IMG/VR virus record: IMGVR_UViG_3300028591_000072
Location: 160,001-224,000 of that record
DNA length: 64,000 nucleotides
From: a virus
Lineage: Duplodnaviria; Caudoviricetes
Direction: 5' to 3' (one strand)
Below are positions 25,101 to 43,055 of the stretch, in pieces (positions within the stretch are counted from its first letter, which is position 1; the number at the start of each line of letters is the position of its first letter). The notes under the pieces were generated by a model. It was given only the letters and a program-made list of their open reading frames with translations. It had not been told where the DNA came from and made no database searches. The position numbers and the translations under genes are program-made.

Positions 25101-25578
25101 ACTATTTAACACCGAGTTTGTACCTGCGGAATCACTTGGAATTAAGAATTATAAATGGGACAAAAATGATGGATATTGGGTACCAGAAGGGAGAAATTGC
25201 TATACTTCTTATTTCTTTTTACCTGATGATGATGAAATTTCAATATTAGACAAAATGAAATTACATGGAAAAGAAAATGTTGAGTCAATCGATGGAGGTT
25301 CGGCATGTCATTTACAATTGATGGAGCATTTAAGTATCGAACAATATCGAAAGTTGCTTGATTTCGCCGGTAAAGTAGGATGTAATTACTGGACGGTTAA
25401 CGTAAAAAATAGTGAATGCAAAAATTGCGGATATATTAGTAAACATACGATAAAAAAATGTCCTAAATGTGGAAGTGAAGATTTTGATTATTGGACAAGA
25501 ATAATTGGATATTTGAGAAAAGTAAGTGACTTTAACGAAGGTAGACAAATAGAAGAAAGTAAAAGGGTTTATTCTTAA
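22183..25578 (+). CDS. nrdD: Anaerobic (class III) ribonucleoside-triphosphate reductase, intein-containing
   Basis: N-terminal ATP cone (VRKSDG..EEFDREKV), YKHDE, PYC, LTFPVET, spliced active site LSSC|CRL, EFVPAESL, zinc site CKNC...CPKC and glycyl-radical loop RIIGYL. Confidence 0.95.
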   Translation: MNVRKSDGSYEEFDREKVKNGICDAYVEAGEECNEILINSIVDNLFLFDKIDSSEIRRQVEDALMSINKKVAKEYIKKFVSDSELKKRGDFITSYINATNASTGSKYDSNANVANKNIATLNAEIPKFENIMFNRKNTSSRIKKLYSNKLAKQYIDDLENHIIYKHDESSFGINSPYCVAIQSYPFLTDGLKGLGGLSAAPKNIDSYCGMFVNLIFAVSSQFAGAVACSGFFNMFDYFARKEWGDDYYKESNSFYKIGYKLRKLLNKTHYWTNNVVELSEHDFGDEEMNKLRDEIVYESTRQLTEEELKTYIENIKKDPNYVFHFGDGTRTIKGQIYQYFQQVVYGINQPAAARGFQSAFVNFGYFDKPYFEGMYGEFVFPDNTRPQWESVSFIQKTFMKWFNAERTRCVLTFPVETMSLLYRDGEYVDKEYAEFTAEMLSEGHSFFIYTSDSPDTLSSCCFSKDQKVLWKSSTGGVNLTTLEELHNAKWETEKKNLRIFHNGSWVNGKTVKLSNRKMYKVVTENNKEFYMTDNHINVTAEGEKTTDKLSTNDYLMFNTMALNAISENDEHLTYEQGFVIGAFLGDGSFGSEVNGTIYSINFSQNEKKYEKMMDMIDKANKQVGGDSFSCLRTVYNNVYPVEISSKRLASFIMKWTNWHRGVYAYNKELNLNCLLQSVEFRKGILDGWYNTDGGNTNRCYTTSKKLVECMEALITSLGMQSIINVSNRTTEICGSKVVIREKEYNRNYPLYCVRWYEPVNNRKNKNKGNSWIKKNNSIYFKIKSIEPFEYNEDVYCIECNNEDEPYFTLPSGLITHNCRLSNKIQENTFTFTNGLTGEQTGSKSVITLNFNRIMQNFVNEHYNGEADSFNKDKQEFMDGFKKYLQPILERVYKYHTAYNDILWELYNANMLPVYSAGFIHLNRQYLTLGINGLNEAWMFLGGKCNYNKDYLYFTSSITGFMKQQNAIHKTRKELFNTEFVPAESLGIKNYKWDKNDGYWVPEGRNCYTSYFFLPDDDEISILDKMKLHGKENVESIDGGSACHLQLMEHLSIEQYRKLLDFAGKVGCNYWTVNVKNSECKNCGYISKHTIKKCPKCGSEDFDYWTRIIGYLRKVSDFNEGRQIEESKRVYS
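23563..24633 (+). mobile_element. Intein (357 aa) with LAGLIDADG homing endonuclease in nrdD
   Basis: Begins CFSKDQKV, has block B TDNH, endonuclease motifs IGAFLGDGS and ILDGWYNTDG, and ends LITHN before a +1 Cys. Removing it restores SSCCRL and leaves a 774-aa NrdD. Confidence 0.93.
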
Positions 25579-26067: not shown

Positions 26068-26874
26068 ATGAAAAAAAGGTTGGTATTTTTTATATATGTT
26101 GATACGGATTATGTGAACAGTAGAATATATGATGTTCATTTTTATCTTTTAAAACATTTTAAGTATAATTTCGATGAATATACGTTTTGGCTATCATTGA
26201 AAGACTTTAGTGAAGAAAATATAGAATTTGCAAGCGAAATTGTTAAAAAATTAATGTCTTTCGGGTTCACAAAAAATACGGAATATAAAATATATGAAAA
26301 TGATTTTTTAAGGGAAGCAAAATGCTTCAATGAAGAGGTTGTGACGAGAGTTTTTGGTGGTGATAATGAACTTATTTTTTTTGGGTACACAAAAGGCTTG
26401 TCAAATGAATTTAATGATTCATTGCTTTTTTGGATTTGTTCGATGTATTATTTTGGGCTGAATTTTAAAAATCGAATTGATGATATTTTTAATGATAAAA
26501 ATAATCACATTGCGTTTTACGGATTTCCTTTAATGGATTATAACACTTGGAACATTGTTAAATATAATCATATGTATGCAGGTACGTTTTATTGGATTAA
26601 TACTGAAATGGTTAGAAAGATAAAGGATTTTTATAATATTGATTTTTCTGTAATTGAAAATAGGGATTACGCTGAAAATTTTACTGGAGATAATTTTTTG
26701 CCTTGTTTTTGTGGGACATATACTGGAAAAAGAATGCCTTGTTGGGAAATGTATCATTTTTCAAGGAATGGAATGGTTAATGTTTTTAATGAAAATGAAG
26801 GGAATTGTGCGGATTTGAAAGAATTTTGTGAATTTTATAATAAAATGATAAATGATTTAAATATTTTTTTATGA
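26068..26874 (+). CDS. HTKG/GTFYW family paralogue 1 (putative glycosyltransferase-like)
   Basis: LIFFGYTKG, YAGTFYWIN and RDYAENF. Aligns by eye over its full length with 26871, 34478 and 36285. Confidence 0.6.
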   Translation: MKKRLVFFIYVDTDYVNSRIYDVHFYLLKHFKYNFDEYTFWLSLKDFSEENIEFASEIVKKLMSFGFTKNTEYKIYENDFLREAKCFNEEVVTRVFGGDNELIFFGYTKGLSNEFNDSLLFWICSMYYFGLNFKNRIDDIFNDKNNHIAFYGFPLMDYNTWNIVKYNHMYAGTFYWINTEMVRKIKDFYNIDFSVIENRDYAENFTGDNFLPCFCGTYTGKRMPCWEMYHFSRNGMVNVFNENEGNCADLKEFCEFYNKMINDLNIFL

Positions 26875-27698
26875 AAAAGAGACTTGTGTTTTTTGTTTAT
26901 GTCGATTGTGCTTATAGGGATTGTTTGATATATGACATACATTTTGCAAATTTATCAAAGTATTATAAGATTTTTGATGCGGCTACAATCTATTTTTCAT
27001 TAAAAGAAATTAATGAAGATAACATGGATATTGTTCGCTATCTTGCAAAAAAAATAATTGATTGTGGGTTTATTAATGATGTTGAAATTAAAATAAGAAA
27101 AAACACTGAAATTCGTGAAGTTGATTGCTTTAAAGAAGAAGTTATTTCAAGGATAGAGAACAACGTTCCTGAACTTGTTTTTTTTACACATACAAAGGGC
27201 ATTTCAAATGTACTAAATGAAAGCCTTTTTAAGTGGATATGTGGAATGTATTATTTTAATTTGAATTTTATTGATGAGGTAAATTGCTTTCTTGTAAGCA
27301 AGCCAATTTATGATACGGCACATAGAAGCGGAATTTTTTATGGATTCCCTTGCCTGGTTAGTAACATTAAGAATTATATAACTAGTCAAGTTTTTTATCC
27401 GGGAACTATATATTGGGTCAATTGTTCAAAGGCTGCTCAATATAATAGATATTTTGAAATAGAGCCGAAAAATAAATATATATATAGCACTAGGTGCTTT
27501 GCTGAAGAGTTTCCTGGCGATTATTTTATGGGCGTTGTTTGCCAAAGTCATTTTATGCAAAATAAAGAGGAATTTTCTTTATATGAAGATTTTGATAAGC
27601 AAATGGAATCAATTTATTCGAATAATTCGTATGCTGATAAAGAAGGGTTTGATTCGTATTGCAATGAAATAAAAGATATCGTATCTTTATATTTTTAA
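26871..27698 (+). CDS. HTKG/GTFYW family paralogue 2
   Basis: LVFFTHTKG, YPGTIYWVN and RCFAEEFP. ATGA overlap with paralogue 1, and a near-identical N-terminus (MKKRLVFF.YVD). Confidence 0.6.
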   Translation: MKKRLVFFVYVDCAYRDCLIYDIHFANLSKYYKIFDAATIYFSLKEINEDNMDIVRYLAKKIIDCGFINDVEIKIRKNTEIREVDCFKEEVISRIENNVPELVFFTHTKGISNVLNESLFKWICGMYYFNLNFIDEVNCFLVSKPIYDTAHRSGIFYGFPCLVSNIKNYITSQVFYPGTIYWVNCSKAAQYNRYFEIEPKNKYIYSTRCFAEEFPGDYFMGVVCQSHFMQNKEEFSLYEDFDKQMESIYSNNSYADKEGFDSYCNEIKDIVSLYF

Positions 27699-27709
27699 CG
27701 TTAATAAAT

Positions 27710-28951
27710 ATGATTAATATTTTAAAAGCAATTATTTTTGATGAATTAAAGGAAGAACATCTTGAAATGTATAATGATGTTCTGTCAGATGTTTATTTTG
27801 AAAACAGTGAAAGAGGGTTTGATTTGGTTGTAAGCGATGGAAATGAGAGTATTAATGACTTGTTATATAACAATAAAAATTTTGATTGTTTGATAACAAT
27901 AGGTAATACTGATACCTCATATTATAATGAGCTTATGCACTACGGGTTTGACATTAGGAAAAAGTGGGTAAACATTCCTGAATTTGATGCCAACAAAATG
28001 GCTAAAATAATAATTGATACATTTTATACCAATTTAAATAGGGAACGTGGAAGTGAAAATAAGCTGTTTTCATTTTTTACGTGTACATTTAATACTAGCA
28101 ACGATGAACTTACGAGGCTATATAATTCGTTTGTAAATCAAACATATACTGAATGGAATTGGTATATACTTGATGATAGTACAAATGATAGTGTAATTGA
28201 ATTTATAAAATCATTGAAAGATTATAGGATTACAATTATTAAAAATGTTACTGACCATGGAAGTATTGGATTTAATAAAAGAACAATAGCAATGATGTGT
28301 GATGGCGATTATTTGGTTGAGGTTGACCATGATGATGAATTGACTCCTGATTGCCTTTATTATCTGAAAACTGCATTTAATATGTATCCTGATACTGATT
28401 TTGTTTATTCTGACGCTGTTGAGGATATTGAGGGTGAATCTTGTATATATGGAGATGGATGGGGATGGGGGGAAGGGACTCATAGAGATGAGGTTGTAAA
28501 TGGAAAAAGCATAAAATTGTCAGTGAGTCCTGAGATAAATCCGTTCTCAATAAGAACAATTTTTGCCCAGCCAAATCATGTTAGGTGCTGGAAAAAGTCG
28601 TTTTACCATAAAATAGATGGCCATAACGTGTCTTTTGGTGTTTTGGATGATATGGAAATACTTATACGCACTTTTTTATACGGAAAAATGACAAAGGTTG
28701 ATAAGGTACTTTATATACAGTATGAAAAGAGAAATAGAATGGGGGGAAACGGAACTGCACAAGCAAGAAGGTTTGGCGAAATACAAAGAACATGCTGGCT
28801 TTTAAAAGAATATTATGACAAAAAGGTACATGATAGAATAATAGAACTTGGATATTTTGATAATGCTTGGGACTATAATTCCGGATGCTCTATATTATGG
28901 AAGAATCATAAGCCTGGATGTGAAATAATGAGCCATTTACTAAAGCCTTGA
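27710..28951 (+). CDS. GT2-family (GT-A) glycosyltransferase with an extra N-terminal domain
   Basis: FSFFTCTFN, SFVNQTYTEWNWYILDDS, GDYLVEVDHDDEL, FVYSD and LDDMEILIR. Confidence 0.85.
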   Translation: MINILKAIIFDELKEEHLEMYNDVLSDVYFENSERGFDLVVSDGNESINDLLYNNKNFDCLITIGNTDTSYYNELMHYGFDIRKKWVNIPEFDANKMAKIIIDTFYTNLNRERGSENKLFSFFTCTFNTSNDELTRLYNSFVNQTYTEWNWYILDDSTNDSVIEFIKSLKDYRITIIKNVTDHGSIGFNKRTIAMMCDGDYLVEVDHDDELTPDCLYYLKTAFNMYPDTDFVYSDAVEDIEGESCIYGDGWGWGEGTHRDEVVNGKSIKLSVSPEINPFSIRTIFAQPNHVRCWKKSFYHKIDGHNVSFGVLDDMEILIRTFLYGKMTKVDKVLYIQYEKRNRMGGNGTAQARRFGEIQRTCWLLKEYYDKKVHDRIIELGYFDNAWDYNSGCSILWKNHKPGCEIMSHLLKP

Positions 28952-28976
28952 AAAACGCTTTATAATACAATATACT

Positions 28977-29011
28977 AACAAAAATGGGCGGTTTTTTGCC
29001 GCCCATTATTG
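28977..29011. terminator. Bidirectional intrinsic terminator between convergent GT genes
   Basis: AATGGGCGG (28983-28991) pairs with CCGCCCATT (28999-29007), with A/T runs on both sides. Confidence 0.8.
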
Positions 29012-30370
29012 TTATTTTACAATAAATATTTTATTTTTTGTTTTTCTGAAATCCTCGTAAATTCCTTTAAATGCATTTGAAAATAGTTGTTGTTCTGAAT
29101 CTATAATCAATGTTTTAATAAACGAAGTTTCTTTTGAAATTACTTCATCAATTGATTTTGCTTTTTTGCAAAAACTTGGGATATATGATTTGTCGTTGTT
29201 TGCTATTACAAATATATTATTAAAATATCTGTTTGCATAATATATTAACGATGCATTAAAATTATTTGATTTAATGATTATGTTTGTATGTTGCATAAAT
29301 TCTTTTAATTCTGAAGCAATTTTAAAGTTTTCATTCGTTGAATTGTCAAGTTCATATAACAATTCTGATGTTTCAATATAATCTTTTGGAAAATTATATT
29401 CAAGTTCTTTTTTGTATAGTTTTTTATATATTTTTTTTAAATATGGTTTGAATATGTTATTATCTCTGTTTTTTTTGAAAAAATCAAGAATTAAATATTC
29501 TGCTGTGTCGTTTTCTTTTTTTACTTTAGTGATGTCATAAAGAAGTTTAACCTTTAGTGGGTCTTTTGTTGCAAGAGGGTCATTTATCATTGTCATTGCA
29601 AAAAATTCATAATCAGTAAGCCTTCCAATTGAGAAATTATGGACACGATAATCAAATGATGAACTAATTCTATTGTATGAAAATGTATTTGATAATATTT
29701 TTTTACACAAAGGAATGTCATCCCATAATAATGTGTAATAAAAATAATTAAAATAGTCACAATCAACATTTTGCAAATTATTGTCTTCTAATAATGATTT
29801 TAGGAATATTTCTTTATATTTCCAATATTGTGCTTTTGCTCCACCATGTTTTTTGTGCAATATTCTTCCGTTTTTAAAAGTCGTTTCACTTGGATGCTTT
29901 TCAAGAATATGTATGCTTTCATGAACTGGATTTAGCCAAAACGGATTTGCACTTTTTCTTATTATACTTCTACTGTCATAGCATAAAGTGTTTATTTCGT
30001 TTCCGTTTTCATCAAAGTTTGTTAGTGGTACATATATTTTTGTAAAATTAAAGAAATTGTTTTCTTTGTAATATTTTATTTCGTTTTGCAGTGTTTCTTC
30101 AAAAACTTCATCTGCATCGGTGGTTAATACATAGTCACATGTTGTTTTTTCAAGTGAAAAGTTTCTTGCTTTTGAGAAATCATCACACCATTCAAAATCA
30201 TATAATTTTATTTTTGGATTATTTAAATGTTTTATGATTTCTTTTGTCTTATCTGTTGAACCTGTGTCTGTAATAATTATTTCATCTGAAAATGAAATAA
30301 TGGAATCAATACATCTTTTTATTACTGATTCTTCGTTTTTAACTATTAAATATGTGCTTAATGTTTTCAT
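29012..30370 (-). CDS. GT2-family glycosyltransferase (SunS/flagellin-GT-like N-terminus) with a helical C-terminal region
   Basis: LIVKNEE..I.RCIDSI, DEIIITDTGSTDKT, WCDDFSKARN, DADE and VHE. Confidence 0.85.
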   Translation of the reverse strand: MKTLSTYLIVKNEESVIKRCIDSIISFSDEIIITDTGSTDKTKEIIKHLNNPKIKLYDFEWCDDFSKARNFSLEKTTCDYVLTTDADEVFEETLQNEIKYYKENNFFNFTKIYVPLTNFDENGNEINTLCYDSRSIIRKSANPFWLNPVHESIHILEKHPSETTFKNGRILHKKHGGAKAQYWKYKEIFLKSLLEDNNLQNVDCDYFNYFYYTLLWDDIPLCKKILSNTFSYNRISSSFDYRVHNFSIGRLTDYEFFAMTMINDPLATKDPLKVKLLYDITKVKKENDTAEYLILDFFKKNRDNNIFKPYLKKIYKKLYKKELEYNFPKDYIETSELLYELDNSTNENFKIASELKEFMQHTNIIIKSNNFNASLIYYANRYFNNIFVIANNDKSYIPSFCKKAKSIDEVISKETSFIKTLIIDSEQQLFSNAFKGIYEDFRKTKNKIFIVK

Positions 30371-31173
30371 TTTAAATCTTCTCTATAATTATAATATTGT
30401 CTTTCATATTCGTCATGAACTTCTGTTAAAGCCATTTTTATCATTAAAGGATTTTTTATTTTTTTTGTAAAGAATATTGTTGATAGCCTTTCTGACAAAA
30501 ATGCCTCAATTCTTGCTTGGTAGTCTATTGATGCGTTTTGGCCTGCTTCACAAGTTATGTATTTTTCTTTATTTTCTATTACGTGATTTTTTATGTCATT
30601 ATCTGAATCAAAGCCTCTTATTTTGTCGAATTTATCTAATACGCCAAATACAAATTCACACCATTCATTAAATGTTTCCTTTTTTAGAATAAAAAGATTA
30701 CATGGATAAAATTTGTTGAACACCATTGTATCCATTGCCGCTTCAAAAAATTCAGGATAGTATCTTGCAATTATTTCCATTACGGTAACTATGTCTTTTT
30801 TTGTGTGGCAGCACATATAGTTTCCATATACGCTTGGCCAACCAAGGTCGAATATTGGTAAAATTGCATCATGCTCTTTAAATATTTCATCCATGTTTGG
30901 TATATCGTTCCAAAAGTCAAAGTACCTTCTATAATGCGCAGTTCCAACATAGTCTTTTAATGGGTAATTTTTCCAAATATAATGTATTCTGGCTAGTTCG
31001 CTGTATCCATGTTCTTTTTTGAATATTTTGTCTTTTGAAGTGTCGCAAACTATGTGTTCTAAATTTGAATGTGCGTCAAAATCTTCAATTGAGACAATTT
31101 TGTAACATTGGTTTTTTGGTTTTTTTTCAAAATCACGATGTGTGATTACAAATATGTCTAAATTTTCGTTCAT
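30367..31173 (-). CDS. DUF4422 / GT111-like glycosyltransferase (galactofuranosyltransferase-like)
   Basis: IFVITH, YSELARIHYIWKN, DYVGTAHYRRYF, NLFILKK.F..WCEFVFGVL and RIEAFLSERL. ATGA-coupled to the downstream GT2. Confidence 0.8.
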   Translation of the reverse strand: MNENLDIFVITHRDFEKKPKNQCYKIVSIEDFDAHSNLEHIVCDTSKDKIFKKEHGYSELARIHYIWKNYPLKDYVGTAHYRRYFDFWNDIPNMDEIFKEHDAILPIFDLGWPSVYGNYMCCHTKKDIVTVMEIIARYYPEFFEAAMDTMVFNKFYPCNLFILKKETFNEWCEFVFGVLDKFDKIRGFDSDNDIKNHVIENKEKYITCEAGQNASIDYQARIEAFLSERLSTIFFTKKIKNPLMIKMALTEVHDEYERQYYNYREDLK

Positions 31174-31267
31174 TTTTTTTTAAAAAAAATATTATTTTAT
31201 TGAATATTTGTCAATTGTTTTTAAATAAAATTATTTTTTAAAAAGTTCTATTATTTGTTTTTGGTTT

Positions 31268-31276
31268 GATATTTAT
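31268..31276 (+). promoter_or_regulatory. Putative late-promoter motif GATATTTAT upstream of the collagen fibre gene
   Basis: TATTTAT core at 31270-31276, in the divergent intergenic region. Confidence 0.35.
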
Positions 31277-31323
31277 TGTTATATAATAATGCCTTCAATA
31301 AGGAGTAATACATATTCTATAAT

Positions 31324-34300
31324 ATGGGAAAACATAAAGTAATACTTAAAAAAAGCAATGTTCAGGATAAGATACCAAATGTAAGCGGTATGTCTTATGG
31401 AGAACTTTTTATAAACTATGCTTCTGGTGATGGTAAATCGTTTATTGCGTTAAGGAAACATGATGATACTGTTGCGCAATTTATGGAAAAGAAGTATGTT
31501 GATAATGAAATTGACGAATTAATTGATATAATAGAAGAGAATGAGTTTGTTGTTGCAGCTGGACTTACTGATTTGAACGAAAATGTTGAAGAATTAAATG
31601 AATCTGTTGTTACTGGCGCTGTTATGAGTAATTCTGAAACAACTCCATCTGTTACAAATAACGTTTTAACAATTCCAGCTGTTAATGGCCCTCAGGGTTA
31701 TCAGGGGCCAATTGGTTCTCAAGGAAATCAAGGCAGACAGGGCTATCAAGGTCAGACAGGCCCGCAGGGTAATCAAGGATATCAAGGTATGCAAGGCTAT
31801 CAGGGCCCTATAGGTCCACAAGGCAATCAAGGCTACCAAGGTATGCAAGGCTATCAAGGCCCGATAGGGCCACAAGGTAACCAAGGTAGGCAGGGTTATC
31901 AGGGATGGCAAGGCTATCAGGGCCCAATAGGCCCACAGGGTAACCAAGGCTATCAAGGTATGCAAGGCTATCAAGGGAAAACGGGCCCAGTATTTAATGT
32001 GACAACAGCAGATACAAAACAATATTTGCTTGGATTAAATGCTACAGGTGGAACAATTGGCGCTGATACTGTTCATACTAATAAAGATGTGTATGTAAGT
32101 GGTAATACACTTTATGCCGGAAATTTAAGCTTTAATGGCGTTTTATTGACAAGTTTTTCATCTTCAGTGCATTCTGCAATTAATAATGCAATTGCAAATG
32201 TTTATAATGTAAAAGGGAGCACTGATTCTTATGAAACACTGACAGCTAAAACAAACAACACAAAGGGTGATGTGTGGAATGTTGTTTCTTCACATGGAGA
32301 AATTGGAACAAGTGGGTACACTCCGGCTGGAACTAATTACGTATGGGATGGCTCAGGATGGGACCAGCTTGGAGGCACTGTTGATTTGACCGGTTATGCG
32401 ACTTCGGCTGACACATATGATTCAATAAATTTTTTATCTGAAGAAATTAATGGGATATATGATGAAATAGATGGGCTTTATCTTACGTATGCGACAAAGG
32501 CGGAAGCATCTGAATACGCAGCTGCTGCTCTTGCCAATGCAAATATGCATACTGATGAAGTTTCTGGAGAAACGCTTAATTCGGCATTTGACTATACTGA
32601 TGAATTAGCAATTACTGGTGCTGTTATGAGTGATGTTATAACTGAACCGTCAATCGAAAATAATATTTTAACAATTCCTACAGTTGCCGGCAATCAAGGT
32701 TATCAAGGGCCGACTGGACCGCAGGGTAACCAAGGTGTACAGGGCTATCAGGGATTGCAAGGCTATCAAGGTAGGCAGGGTTATCAGGGTCCAATAGGTC
32801 CACAGGGTAACCAAGGCTATCAAGGTTACCAAGGCATAAATTCAAGATTTTTATACAGATTTACAGATGTATTAAATGCATATAGCGATATGCTTTATGT
32901 ACTTGAAAATTCTGATGAAGAAGTACTTGGATTCAATCCCAACCATTTATACTTATATACGGGCGGAGACCAACGTGAAATATCTAGTTACTATGATTTG
33001 GGCTCAGTACTTGGTAGACAAGGACATCAGGGCCCGATAGGGCCACAGGGTAATCAAGGCTATCAAGGAAAAACAGGCCCAGTATTTAATGTGACAACAG
33101 CAGGTACAAAACAATATTTGCTTGGGCTAAATGCTACAGGTGGAACAATTGGCGCTGATACTGTTCATACTAACATGAGATTTTATTTTGAAGATAACAA
33201 ACTTCATTTGGATAATAACTCAGATGTTTACATTAATGGCGGACGTATATTGCTTAAAATTTATAATAGCACTGATGGTGTTGGTTTTTATCCTATTAGC
33301 AATGCGAAATTAGGATTATATGGCTCCGATTACGCATCGCCTGTAATAATTACTAATGTTGACAAACCAAGAGAAGATTATGATGCAGTAAACAAAATTT
33401 ATGTAGATAATTTTTTAGATATACTAAGTGGACATGTACAATTTATTTTAAGTGATTATGCGACTAAGGCAGAATCTTCAGAATACGCAGCTGCTGCTCT
33501 TGCCAATGCAATGGATTATACTGATGATTTGGCAATTACTGGTTCTGTAATGAGTGATACTGCTTCATCTCCTTCAATAACTAATAATGTCTTAACTATT
33601 CCTACTGTTGCCGGTAATCAAGGTTACCAAGGCTATCAAGGTAAAACAGGTCCTGTGTTTGATGTAACAACAGCAGATACAAAACAATATTTGCTTGGAT
33701 TAAATGCTACAGGAGGAACAATTGGCGCTGATACTGTTCATACGAATAGTGACATATATGTTATAGGGAATACGCTATATGGCGGTGAAATAAATGTAAA
33801 TGGTATAAAGTATTCAGACTTGGCGACAAAGGATGATGCATCTGAATATGCGTCTACTGCTTTGGCAAATTCAATTATATATACAGATGAATTGGCTATT
33901 ACTGGCGCTGTAATGAGTTCAGGAACTAGTGTTCCAACAATTGAACGTAACGTTTTAACAATACCAACAATTAATGTTACTACGGCATCAACAATGCATT
34001 ATCTTATTGGTATTAATGGAATAAATACTGAGTTTAATTCAACAAATGTTCATTCTAATACCGGTGTCTATATGACAAATGGTACTATATATTCAGCATC
34101 AGATGAGAATCTTAAAGAGTTTAAGGGGGATATAAGATGTTATTTTGACGAATTGAAAGCAATTCCAAAGAAATATTTTGAATGGAAGAGTGGAGACCCG
34201 CCTGGCTTACAAATAGGAACATCTGCACAGGAACTTGCACGATATTATCCTGAAGTTGTTAGTGTTGATGAAAATGGTGGATATGCTGTTTCATATGAAC

Positions 34301-34392
34301 GACTTTCTATTATCGCTCTTGCTGCTGTAGATAAGCTATATGAAAAAATTGTTAAACTTGAAAAAGAAATTGATAATTTAAAAGGTGAGTAA
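31324..34392 (+). CDS. Collagen-like trimeric fibre protein with a C-terminal peptidase S74-like intramolecular chaperone
   Basis: N-terminal phage fibre anchor (VILKKS...P..M.YGELFINY), four Gly-X-Y blocks, fibre motifs (GDVWNV...GTNYVWDGSGWDQLGG and ITNVDKP...DAVNKIYVD), and C-terminal SDENLK...IGTSAQEL...PEVV...VSYERL plus a coiled coil (34099-34389). Confidence 0.85.
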   Translation: MGKHKVILKKSNVQDKIPNVSGMSYGELFINYASGDGKSFIALRKHDDTVAQFMEKKYVDNEIDELIDIIEENEFVVAAGLTDLNENVEELNESVVTGAVMSNSETTPSVTNNVLTIPAVNGPQGYQGPIGSQGNQGRQGYQGQTGPQGNQGYQGMQGYQGPIGPQGNQGYQGMQGYQGPIGPQGNQGRQGYQGWQGYQGPIGPQGNQGYQGMQGYQGKTGPVFNVTTADTKQYLLGLNATGGTIGADTVHTNKDVYVSGNTLYAGNLSFNGVLLTSFSSSVHSAINNAIANVYNVKGSTDSYETLTAKTNNTKGDVWNVVSSHGEIGTSGYTPAGTNYVWDGSGWDQLGGTVDLTGYATSADTYDSINFLSEEINGIYDEIDGLYLTYATKAEASEYAAAALANANMHTDEVSGETLNSAFDYTDELAITGAVMSDVITEPSIENNILTIPTVAGNQGYQGPTGPQGNQGVQGYQGLQGYQGRQGYQGPIGPQGNQGYQGYQGINSRFLYRFTDVLNAYSDMLYVLENSDEEVLGFNPNHLYLYTGGDQREISSYYDLGSVLGRQGHQGPIGPQGNQGYQGKTGPVFNVTTAGTKQYLLGLNATGGTIGADTVHTNMRFYFEDNKLHLDNNSDVYINGGRILLKIYNSTDGVGFYPISNAKLGLYGSDYASPVIITNVDKPREDYDAVNKIYVDNFLDILSGHVQFILSDYATKAESSEYAAAALANAMDYTDDLAITGSVMSDTASSPSITNNVLTIPTVAGNQGYQGYQGKTGPVFDVTTADTKQYLLGLNATGGTIGADTVHTNSDIYVIGNTLYGGEINVNGIKYSDLATKDDASEYASTALANSIIYTDELAITGAVMSSGTSVPTIERNVLTIPTINVTTASTMHYLIGINGINTEFNSTNVHSNTGVYMTNGTIYSASDENLKEFKGDIRCYFDELKAIPKKYFEWKSGDPPGLQIGTSAQELARYYPEVVSVDENGGYAVSYERLSIIALAAVDKLYEKIVKLEKEIDNLKGE
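31687..33648 (+). repeat. Four collagen Gly-X-Y blocks (33, 16, 7 and 4 triplets)
   Basis: Blocks at 31687-31983, 32689-32832, 33013-33075 and 33613-33648, dominated by GYQ, GNQ and GPQ. Confidence 0.92.
31966..33747 (+). repeat. Three dispersed near-identical direct repeats of about 115 bp inside the fibre gene (GYQGKTGPVF.VTTA.TKQYLLGLNATGGTIGADTVHTN)
   Basis: Copies at about 31966-32081, 33058-33173 and 33631-33747, with a degenerate fourth near 33970. Confidence 0.9.
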
Positions 34393-34407
34393 AAATAAAG
34401 AAGAAAT

Positions 34408-34433
34408 GGCCAATCATAAGATTGGCCTTTTTT
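34408..34433 (+). terminator. Intrinsic terminator after the fibre gene
   Basis: GGCCAATC-ATAA-GATTGGCC followed by TTTTTT. Confidence 0.85.
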
Positions 34434-34477
34434 ATTTACTATTATGATTTATTTTTTATTTTTTTGGAAAAAAAAAT

Positions 34478-35287
34478 ATGATAAAAAAGACCTTGGTTTT
34501 TTATTGGTACGCATCAAGAATGTATAAGAATGATATTACGTATCCTTTTCATTTGGCTTGTATAAAAAAATATTCATATGCATTTGATAATGCAATTTTT
34601 GTTATATCTGTTGATGATATTAATGATAAAGACTTGGTTTTTGAAACAGAAAATGGCATTATATGCAGTATAGGTGGAATAATTGGGAATATTAAGTTTG
34701 ATGTAATTTTAAATGACAATTTATGCGAGGTTAATGCGTTTGAAAAATATATATTGAAAAACGGGTCATCTGAATCCATGGAATTGTTTTTCTTTGCACA
34801 TACAAAAGGTGCCAGAATAATACATAGTTATCCTGACTATAAAGAAGATTATTTACGCTGGATATTTTCTTTATATTTTTACTGCCTTGAGAAAGATTTT
34901 TTGTATGAAATGCAGCTAAAACTTGTCGGTGGTTTTGGCGGGAATTTACCGGCGTTTTTTGGCCCAATAGGATTTATAAATGAAGACAAACGTGTTTTTT
35001 ATCCTGGTACATTTTATTGGGTTAATATGAATACGATTTATAATGATGAAATTGAAGGAACTGTATCAATTCCAAAAATATCAAATCGTGCATTTTGTGA
35101 AAAATTTCCTTTAATCTATTCTGATGCTTATAAAAAATTGTCTTCTCATAATAATAAGTTTAAGGAGCCTGACGAATCTTGGTATCTTTATAACCATTGT
35201 AATTGGGATGAAATATCTGAGTATTTTGGAGAAAAAGAAAGGTTTTTTAATGAATATAATAAAATTAAAGAAAGTATTGGCTTATGA
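34478..35287 (+). CDS. HTKG/GTFYW family paralogue 3
   Basis: LFFFAHTKG, YPGTFYWVN and RAFCEKFP. ATGA-coupled to the epimerase. Confidence 0.6.
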   Translation: MIKKTLVFYWYASRMYKNDITYPFHLACIKKYSYAFDNAIFVISVDDINDKDLVFETENGIICSIGGIIGNIKFDVILNDNLCEVNAFEKYILKNGSSESMELFFFAHTKGARIIHSYPDYKEDYLRWIFSLYFYCLEKDFLYEMQLKLVGGFGGNLPAFFGPIGFINEDKRVFYPGTFYWVNMNTIYNDEIEGTVSIPKISNRAFCEKFPLIYSDAYKKLSSHNNKFKEPDESWYLYNHCNWDEISEYFGEKERFFNEYNKIKESIGL

Positions 35288-36288
35288 CAAATCATAGTGT
35301 TTTGATTACTGGCGTTGCTGGTTTAATAGGTAGTAGGTTTGCTGATTGGATATTAGAAAACCATCCTGAATATGAGGTTGTTGGTATTGACAATTTGTTT
35401 GGTGGTTATATGGATAATGTTGATGATAGAGTCGTGTTTTATAAGGAAGATTTAAGTACGGACAAAATAGACTACATTTTTGAAAAGCATGGGTTTGAAT
35501 ATGTTTTTCATTTTGCCGCATATGCTCCTGAGGGGCTTTCTCCATTTATGAGGATGTTCAACGATAAGAACAACATGTTATCAACGGACAACATAATTAA
35601 CGAGTGCATTTCTCACGATGTTAAGAGATTGATTTACACATCAAGTATGTCTGTTTATGGATGGGGACGGTTCAAAGGTGAACCATTCGATGAGAATGAT
35701 AGGCCTGAACCGATAGACCCATATGCCGTTTCAAAATACGCTTGTGAAATGAATATCAAAATAGCAGGAGAACAGCACGGGCTTGATTGGTGTATTATCC
35801 GTCCACATAATTGCTATGGTGAAAAGCAGAATATATGGGACAAGTATCGCAATGTCCTTGGGATTTGGATGTATCAGATTTTAAATAATAAGCCAATGCT
35901 GATTTACGGAGATGGCGAACAGACGAGGGCTTTCAGTTATATTGAGGATTGCCTTCCCGCATTTTGGAATGCAGCTGTTTTACCAGAAGCATCAAAAGAG
36001 ATTATTAATGTTGGCGGAGCGAAGGGGTATTCAATTAATGAAGCAGCGGAGTTGCTTTGCAAAATCACAGGGTATGATAATGTTGAGCATAAAGAATCTC
36101 GTCATGAGGTCAAGCATGCTGTTCCAAAGCCTGATAAATCTATTAAGATTCTTGGGTATGAACAAAAAACGACACTTGAAGATGGGTTAAGACAAATGTG
36201 GGAGTGGGCCAAAAAGCAACCAAACAGGCCGCAATACAAGTGGGAAAATTATGAAATAAATAAAGGAATATATAGTTATTGGAAATGA
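35284..36288 (+). CDS. NAD-dependent nucleotide-sugar epimerase/dehydratase (extended SDR, GalE-like)
   Basis: ITGVAGLIGS Rossmann motif, FHFAA, TSSMSVYG, catalytic YAVSK, RPHNCYG and GDGEQTRAFSYI. Confidence 0.92.
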   Translation: MTNHSVLITGVAGLIGSRFADWILENHPEYEVVGIDNLFGGYMDNVDDRVVFYKEDLSTDKIDYIFEKHGFEYVFHFAAYAPEGLSPFMRMFNDKNNMLSTDNIINECISHDVKRLIYTSSMSVYGWGRFKGEPFDENDRPEPIDPYAVSKYACEMNIKIAGEQHGLDWCIIRPHNCYGEKQNIWDKYRNVLGIWMYQILNNKPMLIYGDGEQTRAFSYIEDCLPAFWNAAVLPEASKEIINVGGAKGYSINEAAELLCKITGYDNVEHKESRHEVKHAVPKPDKSIKILGYEQKTTLEDGLRQMWEWAKKQPNRPQYKWENYEINKGIYSYWK

Positions 36289-37103
36289 AAAAGTTAGTGT
36301 ATCACTTATATGTTCTAGATGGGTTTGATAACAATCCTTTTGCAATTTGCAATAAACTTTGCTTGAAAAATTATATTAATGTATTTGATGATGCTACGTT
36401 TTTTGTATCGGTTGATGACATACACGACATGGCTAGCATAAGAAGTGGTATACGATTTATCGAAGAAGTGTGCGGAAATGTAATTAAACCAAATGTTTTT
36501 GTAGTAAAAAACAATAAAGAACTTGGTGAGGCCACTACGTTTAATACGTGCATATTACCAATGATTGAACTTGGGTTGGAAGATTATGTTTTTTTTGGGC
36601 ATTGTAAAGGAATGACAACAAATAGAGACCACGAATTTACATCATTGTTAAAATGGGTTATTATAATGTATTATTATAATTTGGAATTTATTTATGATGT
36701 ATATGAAAATTTTTATAATGGAAAAATCTTATATGGTAGTAATTTAAGCGATATGTCATTTATTGAAGTGTTTAAATATTTTCCGTCAAAAACTTTTTAT
36801 AGTGGGACATTTTATTGGCTGAACGTAAAGGAAATAAAAAAGTATTATGAAAGCACAAATATTGATATATTTTATGGAAATGATTTGTGGAGATATTATG
36901 CTGAAGAGTTTCCTTTATATTTTTTTAATGAAGTAAAAGGCTCATATAAAAATAATGTAATAACTAATCCTGAAATGAATGATACGTATAAAATGAATGA
37001 AGAATTTTGGAATAGTTATTTATTAAATATTGATGATGAATTGAAATGTGTTCCTTTTATTAATGAAATTATTGATAAGGTAATTAATATAAATAAAAAA
37101 TAA
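36285..37103 (+). CDS. HTKG/GTFYW family paralogue 4
   Basis: VFFGHCKG, YSGTFYWLN and RYYAEEFP. Start reassigned to ATG 36285, which gives an ATGA overlap with the epimerase stop. Confidence 0.6.
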   Translation: MKKLVYHLYVLDGFDNNPFAICNKLCLKNYINVFDDATFFVSVDDIHDMASIRSGIRFIEEVCGNVIKPNVFVVKNNKELGEATTFNTCILPMIELGLEDYVFFGHCKGMTTNRDHEFTSLLKWVIIMYYYNLEFIYDVYENFYNGKILYGSNLSDMSFIEVFKYFPSKTFYSGTFYWLNVKEIKKYYESTNIDIFYGNDLWRYYAEEFPLYFFNEVKGSYKNNVITNPEMNDTYKMNEEFWNSYLLNIDDELKCVPFINEIIDKVININKK

Positions 37104-37111
37104 ATGATAAT

Positions 37112-40100
37112 ATGAAAACTATTGGAATATATAATTTTGTTTTTGATGAACGATATATATGGGATGAAACAAATTATGAAATTGGTCGTATTGGTGGGCC
37201 TGAAATTTGGTCAATTGAAGTGTCAAATGAATTCATAAAACGTGGGTATACCGTTTATGTGTTTGGAAATCCCATAAATGAGCATTTGTCTGAAAATGGG
37301 GTTCATTATGTTAAATGTGAAAATTTCAAAAAAACGTGTAATGATGTTAAATTTGATATAATAATCTTAAGCAGGACTGTTGAATGCATTGATGATATTG
37401 TTGGATGTGAAAATGTATACTTAATGGCACATGATACAACAATTGGTGGTAATTTTACTGTTGAAAAATTAGATAGAATAAAAAAGGTTTTTTATAAGAG
37501 TGATTTTCAAAAAGAAATACTTTCAAAAAAGTATATGATTCCTGAAAATAAATTTTATAGGACATTTGAGGCAATTGACCAAGACAGATATGATGAAAAC
37601 TTAAATGTTAAAAAGAAAAACAAAATGCTTTTTTCAAGCGGTACTGACCGTGGAATGAGATATATTGTTGAAAGAATTTTTTATAAGATAAGAAAAGAGG
37701 TTCCTGATTTTGAACTTGATTTGTGTGGGCATTTTTATGGAGATGTTTATCCTGATTTTGTAAAGGCGGACGGAATAAATGTTCTTGGCAACATTAGTCG
37801 TGAAGAATTGATAAAACACCAATGTGAATCTAAAATTTGGATTTATCCGACTCATGGGTATGATTCTGAATATAATAGAAACGATGAAACATTTTGCATT
37901 ACAGCAATAGAAAATGCATATGCTGAAAATGCTTGCATTTTAGGCGATTGGGGGTGTTTTTCATCTACACTTGAAGGGTATGAATATTTTGTGGGCAATA
38001 AATTGTACAATAGCAAAATGGAACCAATGGATTATGATAACCTCGAAGAATTTTCTGACATTTTGGCAAATGAAGCCATAATGTGCCTAAAGAATGACGA
38101 ATATAGGGAAAAAGTTGTTAATTCTTCTAAGAGTGTTGTCAAAAAATATACATGGAAGAATGCTGTTGATGGATTTGAAAGATTGTTTAATGTATATTGT
38201 AAGGATGTAATGGTGTATGTTATGTCATATAAAGATACTCCATATTTAATTCGTGATAATATTCATAAAGTTCTTCAAGTTGGCGCTTCTTTGTCTGAAG
38301 ACAAATTTGGCGATTTATTTGATAATGTTGGTGATAATATTTCAGAAAAAAATAAGTTTTTTCTTGATGCAACAGGAACTTATTGGGTGTGGAAAAACGT
38401 TGAAGATTATGATTATATTGGCGTTGAGGGATATAGGAAGCATTTTGACTTGACAAAGGAACAAATAGTTGAAATATTGTCTGAATACGATTTAATAGCA
38501 ACTTGTGTTAAAAGTAGTTTAAGTATATATGACCATTATCGGAAATTTCATATAATAAATGATTTGAATTTTTGCGAGTCTATTGTTAAAGAAAAATATC
38601 CTGAATTAAGCGAAAAATTTAGTAGATTTTTGAGAAATGAACATAAGATTTATATTGGAGGAAATTTTATAACATCTCATGAAAATTTTAACGAGATTAA
38701 TAGTTTTATATTTGACATTTTGTTCGATATAGAAAAAAAATATGGATTTACAAAATATGAAGATTGGCTTGAATATGCAAAAAAATCAGGACAAAATTCA
38801 ATTCCACCTGACCATAAGAAAAACGGAATGACTTCGGAAGTTTATCAATCAGGGGTTATTGGCTATTTGTATGAAAGGCTATTTACATTCTTTGTTATTG
38901 AAAATTATAATAAAATATATGAAGTTCAGCATGCTAAACTTGATATGATATTTAAACATAATAATATGAAAACATTACTTTGTTGTATAGGAAGACTTGA
39001 AAACAAATATATTCGTGAATATGTAGAATATAATAAGGTACTTGGGTTTACAAATATATGCTTATATGATAACAATAGGGAAGGAGAAGATGATTTCCGT
39101 GATGTAATTGGTGATTACATTGATAGTGGATATGTCATATTGAAGAATTATAGAAATATAACAGAACCTTGCCAATTTAAGGCTTATAATGAATGCTATG
39201 CAGAATATGGCAACAAATATGATTGGATTGCATTTTTGGATATAGATGAATTTATATTTTTGAATAATAATAAGAGTATAAATGAATTTTTGTCTAATCC
39301 GATTTTTGACGGGTTTGATAAAATACATTTAAATTGGCTTTTGTTTGGTGATGGCGATAATTTGTATAATAATGGAAAGCCATTATTGCAAAGAATAACA
39401 ACGCCATTAGATATTAATTTAAAAACAATATATGACTTCCCTGATACTTTCCATATAAAGCCAATTATTAGGGGTGGACTTGGCAAAATAACATATGCAC
39501 AGACTGTTCATACTCCAATTGATAAGGTTAAATGCTGTAATTCGTTTGGTATTGAGTGTGACCCATTATCACCAATAGTTCCTTATGATTTTAGAAATGG
39601 TGGAATACTTCATTTTACAACAAAAACAGCAGAAGAATATGCTGATAAGGTGAATCGTGGCTTTTGTGATGGTAATAAAACAGATAAGAAAACGCTTATT
39701 GAATTGTTCTTTAAAAGAAATAAAGTTACTGCTGATAAAGTTGAATTATTCAAAGAAAAAACAGGAGTTGATGTTAGTTATCTTTTGCCATATGACGGGG
39801 AAAAAAGCGATGATGTAAAAATATATTCATTATGCTACGCAAAGAAAGACTTTAAGTTTATTGACGATAAAGTGATAACTCCGCTTCAGGTTGGTGCTGC
39901 AAACGGAACAAATGTTTGTGAATTGAAAGATAATACTGGCGATAATATTTCTGAATCAAATTATTTTTACATTGAATCAACTGGAACTTATTGGATTTGG
40001 AAAAATGTAAAAGATGCAAAGTATAAAGGCCAAATGCAATATAGAAGGCCGCTTTCTGGTGTTAATGAAACAATGAATTTTGATGAAATATTCAGTAAGT

Positions 40101-40642
40101 ACGATGTAATAACATGTGAGCCGTTTAATCACGTTGAAAATAATAAACCGACAGAAGAACAACCAATGTTTATCCCGGCGAATACTGTTGAAGAGGGGTA
40201 TAAGTTTTCAAACTGTGCTGATGATTTATATATTCTTGAATTGGCTGTCAAATACTATTTTCCTGATTATTCCGATGATTATGATAAATACATAAAAAGA
40301 GGGCAAAATTTGTATTATTCAAATGGCTTTATTATGAGGTCAGAAGATTATGATAAATATTCTGAATTTTTGTTTGGTTGCCTTAATGGATATCTTGCTT
40401 TTGCAAATATTCATTCTCAAGAAGAACTTGTTGAGCATGTTAGATATAATCTTGAGACAGGTAAATATATAAGGTATAATGAAAAGAATCCAATTACAGA
40501 TGCTGGATTTAAATGGCAGACTGAAATAGGTGGATTCTTATCTGAAAGACTTTGGACATTATGGGTTCAACATAATTTCAAGCAAGATAGGATTTATAAA
40601 CTTCCATATATTAAGATGGAACCCGATAATATGTACACCTAA
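37112..40642 (+). CDS. Four-domain glycosyltransferase polyprotein: GT4-like (GT-B) + DUF4422 + GT-A (Glyco_tranf_2_4/GT92-like) + DUF4422
   Basis: Domain 1: IGGPE...ETFCITAIE (Ex7E). Domain 2: LQVGA...DNVGDNISEKN...YWVWKN...YERL. Domain 3: EYVEYNKVLGF..LYDNN...DWIAFLDIDEF. Domain 4: LQVGA...DNTGDNISESN...YWIWKN...QYRR...FLSERL. Confidence 0.85.
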   Translation: MKTIGIYNFVFDERYIWDETNYEIGRIGGPEIWSIEVSNEFIKRGYTVYVFGNPINEHLSENGVHYVKCENFKKTCNDVKFDIIILSRTVECIDDIVGCENVYLMAHDTTIGGNFTVEKLDRIKKVFYKSDFQKEILSKKYMIPENKFYRTFEAIDQDRYDENLNVKKKNKMLFSSGTDRGMRYIVERIFYKIRKEVPDFELDLCGHFYGDVYPDFVKADGINVLGNISREELIKHQCESKIWIYPTHGYDSEYNRNDETFCITAIENAYAENACILGDWGCFSSTLEGYEYFVGNKLYNSKMEPMDYDNLEEFSDILANEAIMCLKNDEYREKVVNSSKSVVKKYTWKNAVDGFERLFNVYCKDVMVYVMSYKDTPYLIRDNIHKVLQVGASLSEDKFGDLFDNVGDNISEKNKFFLDATGTYWVWKNVEDYDYIGVEGYRKHFDLTKEQIVEILSEYDLIATCVKSSLSIYDHYRKFHIINDLNFCESIVKEKYPELSEKFSRFLRNEHKIYIGGNFITSHENFNEINSFIFDILFDIEKKYGFTKYEDWLEYAKKSGQNSIPPDHKKNGMTSEVYQSGVIGYLYERLFTFFVIENYNKIYEVQHAKLDMIFKHNNMKTLLCCIGRLENKYIREYVEYNKVLGFTNICLYDNNREGEDDFRDVIGDYIDSGYVILKNYRNITEPCQFKAYNECYAEYGNKYDWIAFLDIDEFIFLNNNKSINEFLSNPIFDGFDKIHLNWLLFGDGDNLYNNGKPLLQRITTPLDINLKTIYDFPDTFHIKPIIRGGLGKITYAQTVHTPIDKVKCCNSFGIECDPLSPIVPYDFRNGGILHFTTKTAEEYADKVNRGFCDGNKTDKKTLIELFFKRNKVTADKVELFKEKTGVDVSYLLPYDGEKSDDVKIYSLCYAKKDFKFIDDKVITPLQVGAANGTNVCELKDNTGDNISESNYFYIESTGTYWIWKNVKDAKYKGQMQYRRPLSGVNETMNFDEIFSKYDVITCEPFNHVENNKPTEEQPMFIPANTVEEGYKFSNCADDLYILELAVKYYFPDYSDDYDKYIKRGQNLYYSNGFIMRSEDYDKYSEFLFGCLNGYLAFANIHSQEELVEHVRYNLETGKYIRYNEKNPITDAGFKWQTEIGGFLSERLWTLWVQHNFKQDRIYKLPYIKMEPDNMYT

Positions 40643-40656
40643 TAATTTTATTAATT

Positions 40657-40665
40657 ACTATTTAT
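40657..40665 (+). promoter_or_regulatory. Putative late-promoter motif ACTATTTAT upstream of the gp25-like gene
   Basis: Ends 19 nt before ATG 40685. Confidence 0.45.
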
Positions 40666-40684
40666 TTAAGAAAAATATCATGTA

Positions 40685-43030: not shown

Positions 43031-43055
43031 AGGGAGGATTATTTCTCCCTTTTTT
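43031..43055 (+). terminator. Intrinsic terminator
   Basis: AGGGAG-GATTATTT-CTCCCT followed by TTTTT. Confidence 0.75.

Follow-up and report, generated by a model that had tools for sequence, protein, structure and literature searches.

A soluble glycosyltransferase island beside the baseplate genes of an uncultured jumbo myophage, with a candidate role in virion glycosylation

What does a tailed phage do with a dense row of sugar-transferring enzymes placed between its nucleotide-metabolism genes and its baseplate genes? This question is raised by a 14.6-kb island (positions 26068-40642) located between nrdD/nrdG and gp25/Baseplate_J (gp6) in an uncultured rumen or gut phage. The window analysed here comprises 64,000 nucleotides, i.e. 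bases 160001-224000 of the IMG/VR record IMGVR_UViG_3300028591_000072, and all island coordinates are window positions. The record of 302,581 bases with 32% G+C is classed as linear and estimated to be about 82% complete, hence the absence of a gene from it is not final. Its gene content, including a DnaB-like helicase, an intein-containing nrdD, nrdG, gp25, Baseplate_J, tail sheath and tail tube, is that of a T4-like jumbo myophage of a lytic-looking type. The answer that we favour, with about even confidence, is that the island enzymes assemble a variable glycan in the cytoplasm without the help of a carrier lipid and on virion proteins, among which fibre or tail proteins are the most probable acceptors. 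This view is based on the location of sugar genes inside two tail-gene modules, the presence of a protein-type glycosyltransferase (GT), the lack of export and priming genes, and the behaviour of one island enzyme as a core gene. A previous sequence-only reading of the stretch had likewise proposed a cytoplasmic multi-sugar glycan on virion proteins; the soluble, self-contained enzyme set and the protein-type enzyme speak for that idea, whereas the collagen-like fibre that it placed at the centre did not hold as a fixed partner.

The slot between nrdG and gp25

The island is a large, locally expanded copy of a slot locus that is found throughout a lineage of gut and rumen jumbo myophages. Related contigs (given L numbers) were drawn from IMG/VR metagenomes with three queries, the fusion protein of 1176 amino acids (aa) at the downstream end of the island, the family 2 glycosyltransferase (GT2) of 29012-30370, and the epimerase. 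The records of the relatives are 22-42% complete, so that collagen genes missing elsewhere in those genomes are uninformative. The slot was filled in 11 of the 11 related loci with both flanks, and its length varied from 3.8 kb (L003) to 14.6 kb in the phage studied here. Its sole constant element is a protein of about 560 aa combining a GT92 and a GT111 domain, which corresponds to residues 619-1176 of the fusion and is located directly before gp25 in 15 of 15 related loci and in L016. Across the relatives this core is 46-74% identical, compared to 54-84% for the baseplate protein. Judged by the constant place and the baseplate-like divergence, this protein behaves like a core component of the tail module rather than like a moron.

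The remaining slot content is exchanged among the relatives, in which TupA-type ATP-grasp proteins, TOD1/MUCI70 GT-like domains, a hexapeptide acetyltransferase, a pyruvyl transferase, Glf (UDP-galactopyranose mutase), GT4 and DUF5672 were found. The slot of L003 holds one member of the paralogue family described below and a three-domain GT between nrdG and gp25, and nothing else. L016, with flanks of about 80% identity, still has the inverted GT2+GT111 pair together with the GT2 of 27710, the epimerase and the core, and neither the fibre gene nor the paralogues. The same enzyme set occurs in L149 in a different genomic neighbourhood. Because L016 and L149 retain this common set, the island enzymes belong together; with the core constant and the rest swapped, the product would vary between phages.

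Close cultured relatives were not found, since a megablast search of the island against 50,697 phage records gave zero matches. In the protein search for relatives only the GT92 domain matched, in Lak megaphages and gut contigs, with 37-47% identity to proteins of Prevotella Lak megaphages. In bacterial genomes only the GT111 domain found matches (26-34% identity), and the fused GT92+GT111 arrangement was not detected there; within the reach of this bacterial search, the fused core looks phage-specific.

The features of the island are the following (E, expectation value; AF2, AlphaFold2; pLDDT, predicted local distance difference test; VIA Z, Z score of VIA-align; SDR, short-chain dehydrogenase/reductase):

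26068-26874, plus strand: HTKG paralogue 1, 268 aa, starting 6 nt past the nrdG stop codon; fold predicted from the paralogue 2 model
26871-27698, plus strand: HTKG paralogue 2, 275 aa, the modelled member (AF2 pLDDT 93, VIA Z 10.7 to 8viw)
27710-28951, plus strand: GT2 of the polysaccharide type, 413 aa (Pfam E 1e-13), core residues 121-228, N-terminus of 118 aa without assignment
28983-29007, no strand: bidirectional terminator-like hairpin between convergent genes
29012-30370, minus strand: GT2 of the GmaR/SunS/ThuS clade, 452 aa, candidate protein-priming enzyme (Pfam E 1e-20, PDB, NCBIfam, Foldseek)
30367-31173, minus strand: single-domain DUF4422/GT111 protein, 268 aa (Pfam E 8.5e-38), translationally coupled to the GT2 of 29012-30370
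31324-34392, plus strand: collagen-like tail fibre, 1022 aa (Pfam collagen E 5.5e-28; PHROG tail fibre families)
34408-34427, plus strand: terminator-like hairpin 3' of the fibre gene
34478-35287, plus strand: HTKG paralogue 3, 269 aa, also found behind the fibre gene in L001 (62% identity)
35284-36288, plus strand: extended-SDR nucleotide-sugar epimerase, 334 aa (Pfam E 1e-39; PDB 4zrm E 3.9e-48)
36279-37103, plus strand: HTKG paralogue 4, 274 aa, TTG start (open reading frame list, BLASTP)
37112-38191, plus strand: domain 1 of the 1176-aa fusion, GT-B, GT4-like (ESM Atlas; no Pfam match)
38213-38893, plus strand: fusion domain 2, DUF4422/GT111 (Pfam)
38975-39661, plus strand: fusion domain 3, GT-A of the GT92/GT2_4 type (Pfam E 4.8e-17)
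39929-40603, plus strand: fusion domain 4, DUF4422/GT111 (PDB 6u4b, galactofuranosyltransferase domain of WbbM, E 2.8e-17)
40658-40666, plus strand: promoter-like motif ACTATTTAT, 27 nt before gp25, at the downstream edge of the island

The open reading frames and coordinates given by the sequence-only reading were reproduced gene for gene, and Pfam confirmed the two GT2, three DUF4422 (GT111) and one GT92-type GT-A domain that it had recognised between nrdG and gp25, as well as the nucleotide-sugar epimerase and the single collagen fibre gene. Its GT4-like domain is a supported lead that falls short of proof. Pfam gave no match for the N-terminal 360 residues of the fusion (37112-40642); these residues adjoin phage GT-B/GT4 (GT1/GT4) clusters in the ESM Atlas with a cosine of 0.99, and a separate GT4 gene with clear Pfam matches is located at a comparable place of the slot in relatives. 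This domain is missing in the L016 orthologue and present in L001-L003. The two DUF4422 domains of the fusion gave a joint Pfam E of 1e-72, and the single GT111 protein of 30367-31173 has a 72% identical counterpart in L016. The GT2 of 27710-28951 is kept in L016 (76%), L149 (52%) and L144 (47%). The epimerase is nearest to UDP-hexose 4-epimerases and scores under every NCBIfam equivalog cut-off. Homologues of 57-80% identity to it were observed in more than 40 phage contigs, including the loci L144-L182, and these contigs come from IMG/VR samples differing from those of the island's relatives. The epimerase is far more conserved than the other island genes, which suggests a widely shared phage sugar-nucleotide gene (phrog_540).

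The protein-type GT2 and collagen-like genes

The enzyme encoded at 29012-30370 is a candidate protein-directed glycosyltransferase. It is composed of a GT2 domain (residues 1-175), helical repeats (178-360) and a small alpha/beta domain (362-452) in an AF2 model with pLDDT 87; the region 178-360 is modelled as helical hairpins, in part with pLDDT 65-85, and has no match to the Pfam models of tetratricopeptide repeats (TPR). SunS and ThuS are S-linking peptide glycosyltransferases. In the PDB search, the glycosyltransferase domain of GmaR from Listeria (22ao) was the best match with E 4.8e-24, followed by ThuS (1.3e-11) and SunS (9e-10), while the next GT2 reached 2e-4. The best NCBIfam model was the SunS family, under its equivalog cut-off. 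Foldseek likewise placed SunS and ThuS on top (E 5e-16 to 1e-15 over 308-390 columns), with the next GT2 enzymes TarS, RmlT and K4CP at 1e-9. The enzyme has the conserved motifs DTGSTD, YDFEWCDDFSKARN and DADE in common with phage homologues, and most homologues are GT2+TPR proteins of Firmicutes. By sequence and modelled fold, the enzyme falls in the protein- or peptide-glycosylating GmaR/SunS/ThuS clade.

In this clade, GmaR moves N-acetylglucosamine (GlcNAc) onto flagellin as an O-GlcNAc transferase (PMC9638930). The closest analogue for a priming step is SgtA of C. difficile, a 358-aa GT-A enzyme whose gene adjoins bclA3; it adds O-GlcNAc to Thr in the Gly-Pro-Thr collagen repeats of BclA3, and the glycan is subsequently lengthened by other enzymes (PMC7157674). 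The nine N-terminal residues of SgtA encoded by the published primer are those of six homologues of about 360 aa that were retrieved with the phage GT2, and compared via these nine primer-encoded residues SgtA probably belongs to the same clade. Both systems have a soluble GT2 encoded beside a collagen-like surface fibre, and a helical (TPR-like) partner domain is predicted for the phage enzyme by its model. The phage GT2, which matches GmaR, SunS and ThuS in sequence and fold, differs in that it has an additional C-terminal alpha/beta domain and only four full-length homologues.

The neighbourhood of collagen-like genes is not restricted to the present island. A profile search with the GT2 domain gave 348 phage loci, of which the best 80 were used, and loci sharing at least 1 kb at 85% identity or more were merged. 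Clusters were scored as collagen-positive if they had eight or more Gly-X-Y triplets in one run no further than 8 kb away, and loci retrieved with the epimerase (53 clusters) served as control. Such a run was present near the GT2 clade in 15 of 50 clusters compared to 2 of 53 controls (odds ratio 11, Fisher p = 3.6e-4), an enrichment that could be inflated because some of the control loci were drawn from other habitats. The collagen gene is located within about 300 bp of the GT2 gene in four loci, and in L017 the gene next to the GT2 is collagen-like, with a run too broken for inclusion in the count. Hence, this GT2 clade is enriched beside collagen-like genes in phage contigs.

The fibre encoded at 31324-34392 consists of Gly-X-Gln collagen blocks, repeated Thr/Ser-rich connectors and a C-terminus of the S74 chaperone type (Peptidase_S74, Pfam E 6e-4, below the cut-off). 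If this fibre were the acceptor, we conjecture that the sites would more likely be found in the Thr/Ser-rich connectors. Glycosylation of the hydroxylysine type was rejected, because the Y position has no Lys and the island no 2-oxoglutarate-dependent oxygenase. Two other collagen-like proteins of the Gly-X-Gln/Gly-Tyr-Gln type are encoded at genome positions 252598-254901 (767 aa) and 286472-292162 (1896 aa); the larger one contains 349 triplets as well as a short stretch of Gly-Pro-Thr, and its S74-type C-terminus is that of the island fibre. Two further fibre-like proteins (genome 224989-225909 and 236533-238038) contain six S-[GA]-x-T motifs each, with 0.2 and 1.5 expected, and the second has a knob motif in common with the island fibre.

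HTKG paralogues, export parts and transcription units

Four genes at 26068, 26871, 34478 and 36279 encode a family that we call HTKG. The sequence-only reading had listed them as four paralogues of a GT-like family, and both parts of this description can be sustained. They show 27-34% mutual identity (BLASTP E 1e-14 to 1e-52), have no match in Pfam, PHROG or NCBIfam, and a PDB profile search gave no meaningful match, so that the fold was taken from a model. The AF2 model of paralogue 2, built with 27 aligned homologues, reached pLDDT 93 and a predicted template modelling score of 0.92. Its best match was heparosan synthase 2 (8viw; VIA Z 10.7, root-mean-square deviation 3.7, 183 residues), and the 26 chains with Z of at least 8 were nearly all GT-A enzymes or NDP-sugar transferases (Foldseek, VIA-align). 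Further matches were ColGalT1, hyaluronan and chondroitin synthases, SpsA, KfiA, a Mimivirus GT, the GT8 domain of WbbM, and NDP-sugar pyrophosphorylases. According to the model, the paralogues have a Rossmann-like GT-A fold. GT-A enzymes carry a DxD motif at the place where this family has FFxHTKG; in the model, the strand ending at residue 107 is followed by this conserved motif and no acidic pair, and a DxD was not found. The exchange leaves several candidates for the chemistry, and the proteins may act as metal-independent GTs or as other nucleotidyl- or phospho-sugar transferases. A full profile search found 1126 clusters at 50% identity, 257 of them at E of 1e-30 or below. Members are sometimes fused to GT4 or GT92 domains, which fits a role in glycan assembly.

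A fifth HTKG paralogue, overlooked by the sequence-only reading, is located 34 kb upstream of the island between the genes for the tail sheath and the tail tube gp19. It is part of a second sugar module (genome 151133-153562; window -8867 to -6438; L223:7134-9563) together with RmlD (dTDP-4-dehydrorhamnose reductase), which passes its NCBIfam equivalog cut-off (273.7 vs 224), and an S-adenosylmethionine-dependent methyltransferase of the Methyltransf_24 family. A papain-like Peptidase_C1 gene (L223:6488-7117) is found directly upstream of this module.

The soluble nature of the enzyme set, proposed from the letters as the absence of a multi-pass membrane protein, flippase, Wzy and initiating transferase, was verified with a Kyte-Doolittle scan. 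The ten island proteins have no transmembrane segment except for one marginal window, and the 302-kb record contains no transporter-like multi-pass protein above 170 aa and none of Wzx/Wzy/WecA size that could be an initiating transferase, flippase, polymerase, ABC exporter or GtrA-like protein. A gtrABC cassette consists of the flippase GtrA, the membrane-anchored bactoprenol glycosyltransferase GtrB and the multi-pass, serotype-specific transferase GtrC. A seroconversion cassette of this type is excluded, since the island has no lipid-carrier or export parts and the record no suitable multi-pass protein; the GtrB-like PHROG match of 29012-30370 is weak (E 3e-6) and confined to the common GT2 core. 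The further step of the sequence-only reading, from soluble enzymes to a protein target, does not follow by itself, because WbbM, which is the nearest relative of the core enzyme with a solved structure, is soluble and uses a lipid-linked acceptor. Its galactofuranose-containing glycan is only possible: no match to Glf (PF03275) was obtained in the about 82% complete record, with controls matched, glf is found beside a DUF4422 gene in the relatives L005 and L009, and the host could supply UDP-galactofuranose (UDP-Galf).

Terminator-like hairpins at 28983-29007 (bidirectional), 34408-34427 and 43031-43050 divide the region into transcription units. The first three island genes continue from nrdD/nrdG. 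The inverted GT2+GT111 pair and the fibre gene diverge from a common spacer of 150 nt, and the genes from 34478 to 40642 lead into gp25/gp6 without intervening terminator up to the site at 43031. The motif ACTATTTAT, located about 25 nt before ATG, occurs 72 times in the whole genome, and 47 of these copies are followed by a start codon within 60 nt. It is found in the window at 13250, 40658 and 43102, and it is kept before gp25 in 15 of 15 related loci. Exact copies of this and two other motifs were not found inside the island, and in L004 ACTATTTAT also precedes nrdD and one island gene, hence the motif does not fix the timing of expression. Another motif, TTGTATATT, precedes the genes at 12631, 14537 and 18476, just upstream of the helicase and nrdD genes. 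As to nrdD itself (22183-25578), the intein with a LAGLIDADG-like endonuclease occupies about residues 478-817; the gene is uninterrupted (about 727 aa) in L004, L007 and L010, and L016 has separate pieces only, with a 508-aa open reading frame between the C-terminal piece and nrdG. Downstream of the baseplate genes, five very large proteins of 648-2423 aa are encoded at 43371-50642, 50633-53482, 53484-55430, 55433-58009 and 58875-63668. They match no PHROG family at E of 1e-5 or below, the largest has no Pfam match either, and they are presumably baseplate or fibre components.

What the locus may build

With regard to acceptor, sugars and order of steps, we infer the following scheme. The GT2 of 29012-30370 would grip the folded or folding fibre protein via its helical repeats and add the first sugar, probably an N-acetylhexosamine, to Ser or Thr. 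The GT2 of 27710-28951, the GT111 protein of 30367-31173 and the four HTKG paralogues would then attach more sugars, and the four-domain fusion would lengthen the chain, whereby the conserved GT92+GT111 pair may work like the two-domain polymerase WbbM and generate a repeating backbone. The epimerase would replenish UDP-galactose or UDP-N-acetylgalactosamine and the RmlD of the second module dTDP-rhamnose, whereas UDP-Galf, if used, must be host-derived. The resulting glycan would be variable among phages and would amount to a kind of particle serotype.

Several observations weigh against this scheme. Apart from the mixed habitats of the control set, the GT2-linked collagens of other phages are almost all of the BclA-like Gly-X-Thr type with 37-100% Thr at Y, whereas the three collagens of this phage are of the Gly-X-Gln type with 0-7% Thr. 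The island fibre has Gln in 78% and Thr in 7% of the Y positions of its 59 triplets, i.e. not the GPT/GxT pattern of BclA, and the Thr share of the other two collagens is 0% and 7%. Among the known enzymes, SgtA modifies Gly-Pro-Thr triplets of BclA3, GmaR modifies Ser/Thr of flagellin and SunS a Cys of a peptide. Moreover, the fibre gene is located beside the enzymes in the phage itself, L001, L002 and, in another arrangement, L144, and the slots of L003, L016, L149 and every distant relative lack it. Since the close relatives L003 and L016 keep enzymes in the slot without it, the fibre gene is a facultative insert or neighbour according to the synteny test that the sequence-only reading had named for its own refutation, and the earlier picture of an island surrounding the fibre as a unit had to be given up. 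The protein-type GT2 is restricted to the nearest relatives (the phage itself, L016, L149 and four metagenome proteins), hence it cannot account for the lineage-wide core. A Ser/Thr-rich tag as in mycobacteriophage capsids was found on no protein of the genome, in which a 20-residue window with at least 55% Ser+Thr occurs in one protein only, at an internal position; Ser-Gly tracts are absent from the phage proteins, and the motif S-[GA]-x-T is mildly enriched with 65 copies compared to 37 expected. ACTATTTAT, common before structural genes, is absent as an exact copy from the island. Finally, WbbM alone has been characterised among GT111 enzymes; it is soluble, has two domains and polymerises O-antigen on a lipid-linked primer (PMC12269835).

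The last enzyme leads to the main rival, which replaces the DNA hypermodification that the sequence-only reading had placed in this position. Soluble enzymes could remodel an undecaprenyl-linked glycan of the host (O-antigen, capsule or teichoic-type polymer) at the cytoplasmic face, with priming and export left to the host, and the altered cell surface might block superinfection or keep the progeny from sticking to debris. The TupA ATP-grasp, pyruvyl transferase, hexapeptide acetyltransferase and Glf of the relatives are typical of capsule or teichuronic loci, the GT2 of 27710-28951 is nearest to WcaA, TuaG and K4CP (PDB matches K4CP chondroitin synthase, RmlT and SpsA), and the bacterial matches of the GT111 domains also fit. 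Nevertheless, we regard this explanation as unlikely. The record, as far as it is complete, has none of the membrane and export proteins named above, a freely swapped cassette would need to remain compatible with the export specificity of the host, the locus is syntenic and belongs to the core of the tail module in a jumbo phage of lytic appearance, unlike the moron of a temperate phage, and one of its enzymes belongs to a protein- or peptide-directed clade.

Still less likely, in our view, is the combination of two unrelated systems, in which the inverted GT2+GT111 pair would glycosylate the neighbouring fibre, and the core and the remaining enzymes would have a separate task, such as the synthesis of a free or storage glycan or the modification of a non-virion phage protein, a host protein or another part of the particle. 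No other island unit is encoded on the minus strand, the pair possesses a terminator of its own and shares the 150-nt divergent region with the fibre gene, in L016 and L149 it accompanies the GT2 of 27710-28951 as one block, and the core occurs in many phages without it. However, L016 has the pair without a fibre in the slot, and all modules including the epimerase recur in three genomic settings (the phage itself, L016 and L149), which fits one pathway better.

The building of glycans on modified genome bases, which would evade restriction and CRISPR, is very improbable: although the island adjoins nucleotide-metabolism genes, its first three genes follow nrdG without terminator, and phages are known to encode GTs that attach diverse glycans to DNA (Pyle et al. 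2024, as cited in PMC12619734), a hydroxymethylase of the thymidylate-synthase family (PF00303) that could provide 5-hydroxymethylpyrimidines is missing from the about 82% complete record, whereas 10 of 14 control genomes have this family. In addition, none of the at least 11 GT-type domains, among them GT111, GT92 and the SunS-like GT2, matches a DNA glucosyltransferase family in Pfam, PHROG or NCBIfam, their families being typical of glycan assembly, and all relatives have the core linked to the baseplate genes.

For the assembly of a glycan on virion proteins, the closest functional analogue is Mimivirus. The fibril-glycan clusters of Megavirinae comprise 9-12 clade-specific genes with several soluble GTs, sugar-nucleotide enzymes, a pyruvyl transferase and a methyltransferase, and they produce polysaccharides on fibril proteins without host ER/Golgi or lipid-carrier machinery (PMC9614988). 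The same kinds of enzymes are found across the slot of the phage relatives. However, Mimivirus is a eukaryotic giant virus with other GT families and a GMC oxidoreductase as carrier protein, whereas the system proposed here belongs to a tailed phage and has a GT92+GT111 core tied to baseplate genes. The analogue for the core is WbbM of Klebsiella pneumoniae O2a (PDB 6U4B), a soluble, bifunctional GT111 + GT8 galactan polymerase using a lipid-linked acceptor; the assignment of DUF4422 to GT111 also comes from this work (PMC12269835). As in WbbM, the soluble chain encoded at 37112-40642 joins a DUF4422/GT111 domain with another GT domain. In contrast to WbbM, the phage partner is of the GT92 type instead of GT8, the chain includes up to two extra domains (GT4-like and a second GT111), and neither glf nor Wzm/Wzt nor the context of an O-antigen locus is present in the phage record. 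In the mycobacteriophages Che8, Corndog and Myrna, phage GTs O-glycosylate their own structural proteins (Freeman et al. 2023, as cited in PMC12619734). These are analogues only, in that soluble phage-encoded GTs act on own virion proteins in the cytoplasm; in the account given there, one to few GTs modify Ser/Thr-rich C-terminal extensions of capsid or tail-tube subunits, whereas the present genome has no such tag, and the island has at least 11 GT-type domains and a different genomic position.

A wider proposal, which we put forward as tentative and somewhat doubtful, is that the slot is a particle serotype locus. In it, the baseplate-tied GT92+GT111 polymerase together with the exchanged soluble enzymes would make long, strain-specific heteropolysaccharides in the cytoplasm, built directly onto fibre or tail proteins, in some phages with priming of the SunS/SgtA type; the GT2-collagen pairing would represent a general O-glycosylation of phage collagen fibres and HTKG a new GT family. 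Full-text literature searches brought up no description of comparable loci in jumbo phages of the gut or rumen, nor of phage collagen fibres that carry glycans. To our knowledge, glycans on phage particles have been demonstrated only for a few mycobacteriophages, where they are small and made by one or two enzymes. New are the clade assignment of the GT2, the statistics of its collagen link, the fold and size of the HTKG family, the sugar module among the tail genes and the facultative nature of the fibre.

The analysis provides several leads, namely a collagen-linked clade of protein-directed GT2 enzymes, a phage-specific GT92+GT111 fusion that may be a new type of polymerase, and a GT-A-fold family of about 1100 clusters at 50% identity that has neither a Pfam model nor the usual DxD. 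If the proposal is true, the locus would be the tailed-phage counterpart of the fibril glycocalyces of Mimivirus, and the GT2-collagen pairing in dozens of unrelated phage contigs would reflect a general, undescribed O-glycosylation of collagen fibres. For these abundant jumbo phages of gut and rumen, it would mean that some phages carry a polysaccharide coat on fibres or tails whose variability equals that of bacterial O-antigens, which would bear on host recognition, mucus binding, recognition by the animal immune system and the design of therapeutic phages.

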